This document shows, piece after piece, positions 48,001-64,000 of a stretch of 64,000 bases of DNA (position 1 is its first letter; each line of letters begins with the position of its first letter). The stretch comes from a virus, in the IMG/VR virus record IMGVR_UViG_3300042691_021876, positions 42,535-106,534 of that record. One strand, written 5' to 3'. The position numbers were made by a program.

Positions 48001-51000
48001 ACCTCGGTACTTTTTAAATTGTAAGGGCATAACATCATCAGGCATGTCAGCAAGCCAGTCAAACTCAAATGTGTCACCAACCTTTTTAACGCCTTCTTTA
48101 ACGTATGATTCAAATGTTTTTATGTATTTCAAAACTATTTAGACTTATGAATTGTTGATAAGATTCCTGAAATGTATAAAGCAGCATTTTTTATAGCTGT
48201 CTTCTCAGCAACAGTAAATCTGTGCTTATCTTTAACAAATTCTACACCTAATACTCCGTGCAGTTTACCAGATGGAGTTTTTAAACATGCCATAAAAAGT
48301 GACTGACAGCCTGTTTCATTAGCGCTATCACTTAATCCATACGAGTTTGTGTTAGGGTCAGTCATATCGTATACTTCCAATATATTTTTATCAGCAATTT
48401 CTTTTAATGATTTACTAAAAAAACTTGTTGGCACGTTTTGAAATGATTGTTGAATAAAAGAAGTACCTGTACTTACAACTTCATAAAAAACGCTAAACTT
48501 TTTTATTGATACTCCTGATGAATAATAATGTCCACCGTTATGAAACTGTGTAACCCATATACGGTCGCATCCTATATTAGTAAGAAGTGCTTGTATTTGC
48601 TCATCAACTTGTACGTCAATTAACATTTCTTCATACATTGGATCTGTTTGCTTTTTACGGCTTAACTTGTTTTTTACAACTTCCAAAATACTCGGGCCAA
48701 TCACTGCCGTAATTAACGCCACTCCTATTGTTGCTATAATAGATGCTTCCATTCTTTAATGATTTTATCGGCCTTGTCCTCTATAAGCTTTCGGTCTTTG
48801 TTCTTTAGGACCGTATTGCTTTTTAGCTTTGCCTGTCTTTTTTGATTTTGATTTGTAAGCTGATGTTGAGCTTGTTGTTCCTGATTTCTTTGTTACTTTT
48901 GCCACTGTTTTTTGTGCATTTTTTTGAATTGCTCGTAACTAAGAATTCCTTTTTGTTTTGCCACGTCATCATCGTCATCATCTCCGAATTTGTCGCCCGA
49001 GCCGATTGTACCCGGTCCTGGTGCAGATACATTGCCCATACCTGGTGTATTATTGACACTTGCTTGCGGTGCAGAAAAACCTCCTGCAGCGGATGCAGCA
49101 CCAGTATCTTCGGTTAATTGAGCAACTTCTTGTTTACTAGGTTGCTTTCCGGTTTCAATAAATTCCATAAATGTTTTAATTAAGTTATCTTTGTGATCTC
49201 TAAGCGTTGGTTCGTATTGCATTGCGGCTTGGGCTGATTGTGTATACCATTTGTGTCCAGCGGAAACTCCAGGTAGCCACTCATTTACTTTAGCTTCATC
49301 AGCATGATCTGGTAGACCTTCATGCTTGGTTTCAGCAAAATCTTTAAGTTGCTGCAATGTCATGCTATCAGCAAGATCTTTTACTTCTTGACTTGCATCT
49401 TTAGGGTCCATGTCTCCTTTTTTCAAAGCATAGGCCATACCCATTAAACGTTGTTGTGCTTTACTTGTAGACGGCATCTTATTTATTAATTTTACCTGCT
49501 CTTACTCTATCACGAGATACGGAGTTAAGATATTTTATTTCATCAGCAGATAACTTTGGTTCAATAAGTTTTTTCCATTTACCTTCTTGTTGATTTTTAG
49601 GAAGATTTAAGAAGTCTATAACTTCCGGATCATCTTTTAATTTTGCAAGAATCTTATTTACGGCTGTATCTCTTTTGTGCTCATTCCACCAATCTTTTAA
49701 ATCATCAATAGGATGAAAGTCCAATTTATTTGAAAGCAATGCGAATTGACCTGCAACTGCAGCAGCTTGCAATAATATAACAGCAGTCATTAAAGCGCTT
49801 TCATTAAGATCTGTATAATCTTCAGATTCTTTTAATCCAAATATAGCTCTAACTTTATCTAATTCTTTTTTGTCACCAGATAAAGTCATAACGCCATTCA
49901 TTTGTCCGACAATCTCAAATTTTAAAGGATTTAATTCTCTTTGAATTTTTTTATCATTCCATATAGAATATGGATGTCCGGAAATTTCTAGAGTGTCTTC
50001 ATCAAGAACATCTTCAGATTCTTTAATGAACTTGCCACCTTTCACAGGAACTATTACATACTTTAAACCGTAATGGGATTTCTCACCTGGTGATAAATTA
50101 GCATTCATTCTTTTTGCTTTAGCTTTGGCATTATCAAGTGTCAATAGCCATTCATCTTTAGGCACATCCATTCCAGCATATCCTTTAGCGTCTCTTGGTC
50201 GAGGTTTATCACCAATACTTCCGCCAACCAACATTACTGCATAGTCATTAGCTTCATTAATAAAGTCTTCGTATAGTTTTATGTGTTTCATAATGTGTAA
50301 TTTACTATGTCTGTAATTTTATTTAGCTTGCTTAACTGCATTAACTAATTCAATGATGGCATCGTACAATTCTGTATCATAACTAGTTCGCATATGATAT
50401 CCAGAAACAATCGTTTTGAGTGCATTTGCTGCATTCTTAACTTCTTGGTTATAATCTTTATAATATTGTGCTATATCAGTTATAGCAGTTCTTTCTGTTA
50501 AAGCTTTCTGCGCATCTTCATTTAAGAAGTCTACAGATTCTTTTAAATACCCTTCATCAGAATATCCTGCAATATATGAAATATCACCTTTTGCTGAGCC
50601 CTCTAAAAATTTAACTTTAGTTTTTGAGTCTCTTGCTAATTCTATCACTTCAAACTTACCGTGCTTTGGATGATTATAAATTTCTCCAACTACAAATTTT
50701 GAATACTCATTAACGGCAGATTCTTCAAGTTTACTTTCTGACATATATTCGTAAACATCACCTTTAAAGTTTTGAAGACCACGCTCTTTACTATAATATA
50801 AAGTTAATAGTTGGTTATTGCGAGTTAGCACCTCAATTTCTTTAATATTACTTGAGCCGCCAAATATTTTTTTTACTGTGTACTTTCCTACATCACCAGT
50901 TCTTGTATTTGTTAATTCTATAGTATCTTTTGCTTTTATCTTAGATACGTCAAATTCTTCATTGACTGCTAATTCTTGTAGTTTACTTTCAGCAATAAAA

Positions 51001-63000: not shown

Positions 63001-64000
63001 GTGATTAGCTTTTATAGCAATGTACCCAGTGCCAGGACCGCTTGTTCTTTTAACTATTCCTACGGTAATAGCTGATATTTTGCTTTTACCAATTCCGCCT
63101 TCTTTAATTAGTAAAGTAATAGTTTGATAATCACGAACCCCTCTTGCTTGTCCTTTATTAGTAACAGTAGCTGGTGAACTCATTGCATTATACCCATTTG
63201 GCTCTACACTCTCAACAGCTGAAAGAATTTTAGCAGGCAAGCCTTTTTCTACATATCCAAGAATCTCACGAGAAATTGCATTTGGGTTTCCGTTTGAGTC
63301 ATTAAACTTTAAACCTTCATTAACTAAAGATTCTGTAAGATTACCTTCTCTGTCCAGTGCATCAGAAAAGAAAAATGTTCCTTGATTAAGTCTACCTTCT
63401 TGGTCTGTTCTTCCTACATACTCTTTAGTTTTCGGATTCCAATAATGAGTAACTCCGTCTGGCGCTGACATATGTTTTAGTTTACCATTCCTTGCGTTAT
63501 TCATTAGAGTACGAGCAATTTCAACTGTTATCTTTACTCTATTAGTTAGTTTTGACTTATCAACTGCTGCCAATGCCTCATTAAGAGATTCATCAACATA
63601 GTTAATTATCTTAATGATTGAATTAGGATAGTCTTTCATTGCATCAAGATCATGTGGTACAAAGAATTCTTCCCCATCTTTCTTTCTAACGTTATTCCAA
63701 ACTCTCTTAAGAGTAAAACCTTTTTTGGTATTACTTATAACTCGAGATACTTCTCCAACATTAGGTCCATCAGCAATGTAGTCACCGGGTGCAATATCAT
63801 CCCACTCAACGTTCTGTGTCTTATACTTGTTTTGCGTTCTATTATATGATTCGTTTACGAATTGGTCAAATGTAGGTATATGTTTCATTATTTAATTGCT
63901 GCTTTAATTAGTTTCTCAAACACTGAGCTAAAGTCTCCTTTAGGAGTTACTTTAAGTGGTTTCTTGTCTGACATAATGTTTTTGTTAATCCAATTGAAGT

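Follow-up and report, generated by a model that had tools for sequence, protein, structure and literature searches.

The locus and its tagged genes

The stretch of 64,000 nucleotides (nt) analysed here (the window) makes up the right-hand part of a linear virus contig of 106.5 kb from IMG/VR (G000:C1:42535-106534), and it is the end of the genome of a phage that is kin to the huge Bacteroidota phages. Almost all of its genes lie on the minus strand; they are named below by a w and their lower coordinate. The subject of this work is an array of open reading frames (ORFs) that begin with a common leader. Four or five of them encode strings of two to three independently folding modules of 50-150 amino acids (aa), and the junctions between these modules repeat the processing half of the leader.

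Motif scans of the entire 106.5-kb contig placed the N-terminal string MK[HY][IV]K[TL][FY]E.F[IL]NE on 16 ORFs, all of them on the minus strand between window positions 36184 and 63888, and the string is absent from the rest of the contig. One of these ORFs, the ATP-grasp gene, has a GTG start at 57464. The bodies behind the leader are mutually unrelated: Pfam and PHROG point to a phosphoribosyltransferase (PRTase), an ATP-grasp protein, a PAP2 protein and a Tpt1/ART-fold protein, one body is highly acidic, and numerous others are orphans. The capsid targeting sequence (CTS) of phage T4 is MKTYQEFIAE (PMC8442874), where residues 4 and 7 govern targeting while residues 8 and 10 govern processing (PMC9026906). 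The leader of w50319 is MKHIQTYENFIAE (...TYENFIAE), and homologs of the PAP2 cargo bear 10-aa leaders, for example MKNYRDFIAE and MKTFKDFLNE. At the level of the motif, a site of the gp21 type (I/L-x-E) ends the tag. Counting from the terminal Glu as P1 and from the residue after it as P1', the 183 leader ends collected have I, L or V at P3 in 97%, E at P1 in 95% and S, A or G at P1' in 66% of cases. At least 16 unrelated proteins thus share an N-terminal T4-CTS-like tag, homologous or analogous to the CTS of ~10 aa itself.

Several cargos have a tandem second site a few residues past the leader (FVNEKNEYLNE, FLNEAKMNE, FINDINE and IFENRLKEIFLNE), and such sites stand behind 22 of 146 leaders. 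The neighbouring cargo genes w53276-54160 and w54178-54570 (minus strand) encode proteins with identical first 17 residues; the product of the latter, 130 aa long, matches the RNA 2'-phosphotransferase family (Tpt1/KptA, ART fold; phrog_5470, E = 1.8e-5).

Strings of small modules

The cargo genes at 49479-63888 had been described in the first-pass annotation as polyproteins of small domains joined by prohead-protease sites. All sequences quoted there were recovered in the ORFs to which they had been assigned (w50319, w49479, w62854, w38881 and w59221), and the architecture itself held for a part of the genes: of the 16 leader ORFs, 4 clearly encode strings of several modules (5 if the PAP2 gene is counted), while most genes in that span encode a single enzyme behind the leader. 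Internal linkers of the form h-x-E-S-x(1-9)-h-[ND]-E, where h is a hydrophobic residue, occur in four leader ORFs only, namely w38881, w49479, w50319 and w62854 (Table 1). No Pfam or PHROG family was matched by these four strings.

Table 1. Leader genes, their parts, and the protease and head genes discussed in the text. Positions are those of the window unless another sequence is named; arrows mark the bond after the presumed P1 Glu.
Feature	Residues	Position (nt)	Strand	Remarks
Array of 16 leader ORFs		36184..63888	-	36184, 38881, 47362, 49479, 50319, 51030, 53276, 54178, 54573, 55072, 56364, 59221, 60101, 61274, 62167, 62854
w50319		50319..51026	-	235 aa, candidate polyprotein
w50319 leader	1-13	50988-51026	-	
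w50319 linker 1, SKLQELAVNE		50958-50987	-	IAE-SKLQELAVNE = residues 11-23
w50319 module A	24-94	50745-50957	-	SH3/Tudor-like barrel (structure model)
w50319 linker 2, MSESKLEESAVNE	95-107	50706-50744	-	
w50319 module B	108-160	50547-50705	-	second small barrel (structure model)
w50319 linker 3, LKESVDFLNE	161-170	50517-50546	-	
w50319 module C	171-235	50322-50516	-	helical (structure model)
w49479		49479..50291	-	270 aa, candidate polyprotein; leader 50253-50291
w49479 module 1	14-88	50028-50252	-	
w49479 linker, IKESEDVLDE	89-98	49998-50027	-	
w49479 module 2	99-152	49836-49997	-	
w49479 linker, LKESEDYTDLNE	153-164	49800-49835	-	
w49479 module 3	165-270	49482-49799	-	
w62854		62854..63888	-	344 aa, candidate polyprotein; leader 63850-63888
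w62854 module 1	14-97	63598-63849	-	
w62854 linker, VDESLNE	98-104	63577-63597	-	
w62854 module 2	105-183	63340-63576	-	
w62854 linker, LTESLVNE	184-191	63316-63339	-	
w62854 module 3	192-344	62857-63315	-	
w38881		38881..39753	-	290 aa, candidate polyprotein; beyond the 49479-63888 span
w38881 leader and tandem second site, FVNEKNEYLNE		39694-39753	-	YLNE at residues 17-20
w38881 module 1	21-87	39493-39693	-	
w38881 acidic linker	89-107	39433-39489	-	LSEQELNEELTDDQLLE at residues 91-107
w38881 module 2	108-290	38884-39432	-	
w59221, PAP2 (class A acid-phosphatase-like) cargo		59221..60099	-	PF01569, E = 1.8e-7; leader 60061-60099
w59221 N-terminal insert of 55 aa ending in LYE	14-68	59896-60060	-	LYE at residues 66-68
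w59221 PAP2 body, from AQTG	69-292	59224-59895	-	
ClpP-like serine protease		34058..34741	-	PF00574, E = 2.4e-28; phrog_94 'head maturation protease', E = 1e-36
S77-like ORF, 144 aa		contig 6441-6875 (L001:6441-6875)		outside the window; PF03420, 26 bits against a cut-off of 27
S77::scaffold of LR756500		L008:31-1929	-	
S77::scaffold of G003		L068:1444-3345	+	
S77::scaffold of G002		L069		
gp23-like capsid protein of LR756500		L036:1426-3078	-	N-terminus MIKLINE↓AE
gp23-like capsid protein of G003		L071, from base 1255	+	N-terminus MYLINE↓SE

As to the PAP2 gene, the LYE that precedes its enzyme domain had also been proposed as a junction, and the homologs bear this out: in more than 30 short ones the end of the leader abuts the start of the body (FLNE↓AQVG, FLTE↓AQIG, FLIE↓AQIS and also KVYE↓AQ) at the very residue where the window protein has TELYE↓AQTGS. 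In other homologs, a zinc ribbon or a different module stands behind the leader and ahead of this start.

Composition of the junctions

The expression [LIVFMT].ES.{1,9}[LIVFMA][ND]E, which was devised after the motif had been seen and leaves P1' unconstrained, found 7 matches in the 3351 aa of the cargo bodies and 1 in the 29760 aa of the other ORFs of the contig; 500 shuffles gave a mean of 0.1 matches and a maximum of 2. The shorter motif [LIVFM]NE was observed 13 times in the cargo bodies against 3.4 expected. On the shuffles and the comparison with the non-cargo ORFs, we rejected a chance origin of the linkers. Position tables, compiled for the 183 leader ends, 34 tandem sites and 135 non-redundant internal sites, are alike in having V, L or I at P3, Asn at P2 and Glu at P1, with a small P1' residue (A, S or G) in 54% of the tandem and 57% of the internal sites; positions P6-P5 are enriched for E-S, as in the FESF of many leaders. 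P1' of [LIVFM]NE is A, S or G at 84 of 134 internal cargo sites and at 89 of 500 sites in the non-cargo proteins of three genomes (odds ratio 7.8; Fisher p = 6e-23, computed over sites that are not phylogenetically independent). The shared preference at P1', together with the enrichment of the motif, links the internal sites to the leader ends. By its letters, the linker corresponds to the C-terminal, processing half of the leader and lacks the targeting half (MKHIKTF).

The same repetition could be produced in another way, if the tagged cargo stays whole and at most the N-terminal tag is removed. The linkers would then be flexible acidic spacers, left from the 3' halves of leaders by the fusion of adjacent leader genes and kept alike by recombination or gene conversion within the tandem array. 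Tandem gene arrays with near-identical leader DNA, of which the 17 common residues of w53276 and w54178 are an instance, are in line with this, as are the direct-repeat families D2 and D3, which linker DNA forms together with a leader end (69-77% identity), and the relative P0025, which resembles a deletion between two linkers; besides, cleavage at the linkers is something that we infer. However, non-specific spacers should drift, yet P3, P2, P1 and P1' are conserved even where the flanking modules are 20-40% identical. The linker Ser is encoded by TCT in some copies and by AGT in others, the codons of the leaders vary synonymously, and the DNA copies of the linkers are merely 69-77% identical, so that it is the peptide that is under selection; conservation as a pure DNA repeat was rejected in view of this low identity and of the use of both Ser codon families. 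Moreover, a second lineage with another leader (MKASEFKQLIREE...VLKE) has G-I-N-E linkers throughout: all linkers were swapped together and h-N-E was retained, as if the linkers had co-evolved with a reader that acts in trans. The same motif is also found at the end of the protease domain and at the N-terminus of the major capsid protein of relatives. Considering all this, we regard uncut cargo with inert spacers, the foremost competing reading, as rather unlikely.

A second class of tags, MKASEFKQLIREEIQKVLKE / MKITELQKLIREEVKKIVNE, was seen in P0004, P0005, P0014 and P0021, which contain the same modules and in which G-I-N-E linkers replace ES..h-N-E. Two further proteins of the cargo region carry similar sequences. 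A ferritin-like protein (window 60682-61251, minus strand) starts with MEDFKNF...SSPAVNE↓G, a degenerate leader-like extension with an AVNE ending, and its L006 homolog is devoid of this extension. A leaderless DUF3008 protein (window 48893-49477, minus strand) carries, directly past the domain that gives it its name (residue 66), the string ...DEAKVNE↓W, perhaps one more site of the junction type.

Domain boundaries and exchange of modules

Structures were predicted with AlphaFold2 (AF2) for w50319 (alignment of 18 sequences) and w49479 (36 sequences). The model of w50319 comprises two small beta-barrels (residues ~30-98 and 110-155; predicted local distance difference test score, pLDDT, ~90) and a helical hairpin. 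Values of pLDDT under 50 are limited to residues 19-21 and 99-107, where linkers 1 and 2 end, and linker 3 has 56-65; the predicted template modelling score of 0.37 is as expected of independent beads. In w49479, pLDDT drops under 50 at residues 91-98, exactly ESEDVLDE, and at 155-196; for modules 1 and 2 it is 71-83. Thus, the reading of the linkers as boundaries between domains agrees with both models, and in neither does a linker lie inside a folded domain. A Foldseek search of the PDB with the w50319 model returned weak tandem matches to SH3/Tudor/Agenet/KOW-like structures (best E = 2.4e-3, none at or below 0.001), and a search of the ESM Atlas with w49479 yielded no usable match. Module 3 of w49479 opens with a hydrophobic, transmembrane-like helix of 22 aa, ALMTAVILLQAAAVAGQFALLS (residues 165-186), which is kept in P0008 and L040; the module may be membrane-active.

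Linker-bounded strings extend well beyond the window, into metagenomic relatives. The architectures are recombined across ~100 metagenomic proteins, with two to three modules in each window string and more in the 427-aa L006 protein. An exhaustive HMMER search with w50319 showed that its modules A, B and C match three separate sets of proteins. Module A occupies residues 217-321 of a 428-aa, 103-192 of a 243-aa and 1-113 of a 179-aa protein; the leader with module B alone makes up proteins of 66-76 aa (e.g., P0013, P0016, P0021), and the leader with module C alone proteins of 74-77 aa (e.g., P0009, P0011). Within the L006 string module A is 84% identical to that of the window, and the match ends at IGESVVNE and MSESKLGESVVNE. 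Module 1 of w62854 recurs with 86% identity as the last module of P0010. Module 2, the only one conserved in L006:9302-10387, recurs with 78% identity as the first module of P0004, behind a different leader. Among 59 homologs of w49479, P0025 consists of modules 1 and 3 (module 2 cleanly gone, module 3 with 98% identity), P0035/36 of 1 and 2, P0037 of 3 followed by 2, and P0073/74/76/78 of the leader and module 2; module 1 also occurs in second place. In homologs of w38881, module 1 is tied to other modules via FESEE[FV]LNE or VNE (P0088, P0089, P0090, P0093), and P0086 is composed of the leader and module 2 only.

The positions of the breakpoints were evaluated by all-against-all BLASTP of 146 leader proteins, taken from 30 loci and from database matches. 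The internal ends of high-scoring segment pairs fell at most 5 residues from h-N-E in 42% (left ends) and 35% (right ends) of cases, against 8% (maximum 15%) for random positions; the remaining ends lie mostly at variants of the motif (VTE, LDE, GINK) or in leucine-rich repeats. Modules are thus found single, reordered and re-partnered in relatives, with homology breaking at the linkers, so that shuffling at these points, put forward in the first-pass annotation as a test of the idea, is borne out.

A module starts at one and the same position after a leader and after a linker. Module C of w50319 is preceded by DFLNE↓D both in the window, where this is a linker, and in P0009, where it is the leader. 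Module B, which follows AVNE↓YSKF in the window, follows the leader FLNE↓SSKF in P0008 and also stands behind a leader in P0012 and P0016, and module 2 of w62854 has SLNE↓ALAA in the window against VLKE↓ALAP in P0004. If the Glu is the cut site, all these genes would therefore give the same mature products.

In giant phages, the propeptides of ejection proteins are 111-254 aa long, are cut at several sites and are cleared from the head (PMC10052503, PMC5694885). By analogy, the N-terminal modules of the strings could be long, multiply cut propeptides in the manner of phiKZ and SPN3US, which are expelled and leave the last module alone as the mature cargo. Judged by motif, each of the four strings has one to three putative internal Glu sites. 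Disposable segments, however, are hard to reconcile with modules that are predicted by AF2 to be well-folded domains and that occur in relatives as first, middle, last or sole module, with the order inverted in P0037. Since the modules are permuted and stand alone in relatives, we rejected the propeptide-only reading, to which we assign a very low probability.

Head genes, candidate proteases and expression

Besides the cargo array, the window has virion and replication genes of the T4 kind. They encode, among others, a portal (phrog_213, E = 2e-67), a large terminase, a sheath-like protein of great length and counterparts of gp2 (DNA end protector), gp4 (head closure) and gp15 (tail sheath stabiliser). 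The closest GenBank relatives of the portal belong to uncultured huge phages (LR756500, 462 kb, 49% identity; LR756504; LR756502; others) and to Prevotella Lak phages; for window positions 49479-56000, Megablast found no match to a GenBank phage. CheckV rates the contig as 37% complete. A 257-kb metagenomic contig carries a protein identical to w49479, and the true genome is therefore probably about 250 kb or larger. At window 18141-20532 (minus strand), the portal gene is followed by genes for a DnaQ-like exonuclease and a clamp loader, unlike the order with protease and capsid genes in LR756500 and the related genome G003, so that the head module is split in this genome.

In LR756500, G003 (254 kb), G004 and G002 (288 kb, rated 100% complete), the genes for the portal, an S77::scaffold protein and a gp23-like major capsid protein (MCP) follow each other in that order. 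The S77::scaffold protein (632-769 aa), encoded directly between portal and capsid, begins with a protease domain of the S77 family, to which T4 gp21 belongs, and continues as a long coiled, scaffold-like region. A conserved AEL[SN]RVNE↓A[FY]G closes the protease domain of LR756500 and G003; T4 gp21 and SPN3US gp245 cut off their own C-terminal region at this position. Over its whole length the G003 fusion contains nine h-N-E sites, or 14 per 1000 aa. The N-termini of the MCPs of the same two genomes (Table 1) suggest that a very short prepeptide is removed at the same motif, which is absent from the capsid protein of G002, starting with MININKKK. The likely reader of the motif would be an S77 enzyme whose gene lies in the portion of the genome that the contig lacks.

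The only S77 homolog of the contig itself is a 144-aa ORF, which has GELHYP for GELDHP and RPRCVGS for SSRAAGS of the bona fide S77 domain of a relative, with the His shifted, and for which phmmer found no match among PDB sequences. Probably it is devoid of the catalytic Ser and represents an inactive paralog; SPN3US-like phages likewise have a diverged protease paralog, gp117 in SPN3US (PMC5694885).

The sequence RATATATA occurs 14 times between window positions 754 and 55364, in all 14 cases on the coding (minus) strand. Most copies stand 10-40 nt ahead of a structural gene or a cargo cluster: they closely precede the genes of the sheath, the portal, the gp15-like protein and further structural proteins, as well as five of the cargo clusters (36928, 39777, 51486, 54195 and 55357). 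The sequence is a candidate for a late promoter element and is similar to T4 TATAAATA; its strand bias and placement are suggestive of a late promoter common to structural and cargo genes.

The leaders and linkers might also be read by a factor that has nothing to do with the head, such as a cytoplasmic protease, for example the ClpP-like one, a chaperone or an export factor, in which case the proteins would act inside the cell and not be carried in the capsid. The ClpP-like protein is the only catalytically plausible candidate for a head protease on the contig, several of the tagged proteins look metabolic (PRTase, ATP-grasp, PAP2), and the lack of basic character of the modules fits this reading as well. 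As a head protease, however, the ClpP-like protein was downgraded, because its gene lies among replication genes, between those of a topoisomerase and a sliding-clamp-like protein, there is no homolog in G003, and the LR756500 copy is distant from the head genes; the latter two facts also weigh against its being the reader of the tag in any other role. The tag, besides, resembles the experimentally defined T4 CTS, including the 10-aa forms, and co-occurs with S77::scaffold and gp23-like modules in all near-complete leader genomes examined, and the late-type motif is common to cargo and structural genes. A reader outside the head thus seems improbable to us.

Interpretation

We estimate at about 0.6 the probability that the linkers are prohead-protease cut sites and that the strings are a polyprotein version of the CTS / internal-protein system of T4. 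The sequence of events would be as follows. Inside the prohead, the tag would dock the precursor onto the scaffold core; the prohead protease, of the gp21 (S77) type and cutting after Glu, would remove the tag and cut all junctions; each module would be freed as a small internal protein and leave the capsid with the DNA. To judge from the comparison of relatives, the junction would also be the boundary of the evolutionary unit, modules being gained, lost, permuted and freed at leader or linker ends; as a cut site goes with every module, the mature products would be the same in all combinations.

Several observations weigh against this interpretation. The contig encodes a ClpP-like protease and apparently no active S77, its sole S77 homolog having Pro, Arg and Cys at the catalytic Ser motif, and no gp23-like MCP gene was found in the contig, which is 37% complete. 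Some h-N-E sequences lie inside enzyme domains, such as AINE↓R in the ATP-grasp protein. The sequences compared are kin, and the statistics overstate their independence; the total of RATATATA, 14 against 11.7 expected, is not above chance. The modules are not basic, unlike the internal proteins of T4, and function searches assigned them none. LR756500 and G003 have 27 and 30 leader genes, respectively, almost none with internal linkers, and the polyprotein habit is therefore lineage-specific. Finally, we infer cleavage, packaging and ejection alike from sequence.

As for the more specific proposals of the first-pass annotation, the link to a T4-type prohead protease is plausible insofar as relatives have, next to the portal, an S77::scaffold fusion and also a gp23-like capsid protein, which bear the motif at the expected cut positions, and is weakened by the apparent absence of an active S77 from the contig itself. 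Its description of the modules as effectors amounts to a guess, as they have no recognisable function. Its view that the pieces are cut to be small enough to eject finds no support, and T4 ejects the large Alt protein.

We would tentatively, and with more doubt than confidence, go one step further and propose a double use of the junction motif, as a cut site of the head protease and as a fixed joint for the exchange of modules, which together would maintain a combinatorial library of mini-proteins of 50-150 aa. Presumably these would be early-acting counter-defence or takeover factors. If so, a module could be loaded by splicing it behind any tagged one, and the array would be a natural packaging cassette with one tag and many payloads.

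The literature search, which covered open-access text, found no paper on this leader or architecture and no case of a polyprotein strategy for injected cargo in a tailed phage; if the junctions are cut, the phage described here would be such a case. The CTS principle of T4, which involves few proteins in one phage group, would then extend to uncultivated huge phages with 16-30 genes each. The rule of a leader followed by h-N-E↓(A/S/G) would predict virion-delivered proteins and their mature ends from metagenomes, dozens of small orphan domains would become candidates for a role in early takeover of the host or in anti-defence, and a compact way of packing more than one payload into a phage capsid would suggest itself. 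Cut or uncut, the strictly junction-bounded shuffling of modules is a clean natural example of recombination at the level of domains.

Comparison with known systems

The internal proteins of T4, IPI, IPII and IPIII, and Alt are tagged with the CTS and processed by the prohead protease gp21 (PMC9026906, PMC3012670), the internal proteins being cut once (PMC8442874). The system described here is similar in the short N-terminal tag on unrelated proteins (MKTYQEFIAE in T4; MKHIQTYENFIAE or MKNYRDFIAE here) with its I/L-x-E ending, in the portal, S77 protease and gp23-like capsid protein of the relatives, and in the presence of an ART-fold cargo, which in T4 is Alt; the likeness concerns a clade that is known from sequence only. 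The CTS and the gp21-processed internal proteins of T4 were reportedly treated by Mullaney and Black in 1996. Exchange of the P1 Glu for Asp blocks the cut in T4. Unlike the handful of tagged proteins in T4, there are 16-30 tagged genes per genome, and the tag is usually 13 aa long, often with a second site after it. In place of a single cut, the processing half of the tag is repeated between folded modules, and the protease of the relatives is fused to the scaffold.

In phiKZ, 201phi2-1 and SPN3US, head and ejection proteins are cut at several (S/A/G)-x-E sites by gp175/gp245 (PMC5694885, PMC10052503). Common features would be a Glu-cutting protease of the S77 type, a three-residue motif, a small P1' residue, several or closely spaced redundant sites and a diverged paralog of the protease. 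No sequence homology to the head and ejection proteins of these phages was found. The differences are that the extra cuts destroy long N-terminal propeptides there, whereas the segments between the sites are here modules that fold, are reused and are also found as genes of their own, and that P3 is hydrophobic and P2 is Asn here in contrast to A/S/G-x-E.

Polyvalent proteins, which occur in phages and conjugative elements, are large, contain 2-15 recognisable enzymatic domains and often include peptidases of the MPTase type (Iyer, Burroughs, Anand, de Souza, Aravind 2017; PMC5512222). Like them, the strings combine at least two distinct, unrelated and shuffled domains per polypeptide and are encoded near virion genes; co-delivery with the DNA is proposed in both cases, and processing has been proposed for some polyvalent proteins. 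Here, in contrast, there is a common tag and a common junction motif, the putative site of a protease acting in trans, the modules are tiny and unannotated, and neither enzymatic domains related to conflict nor an embedded peptidase were detected in the four strings by Pfam and PHROG or by Foldseek with the w50319 model.

Finally, conserved junction motifs, a virus-encoded protease and a connection with particle maturation are reminiscent of the polyproteins of RNA viruses and retroviruses. These, however, belong to an unrelated virus world, and the strings of the phage differ from them in carrying accessory cargo and in the freely variable order and content of their modules.

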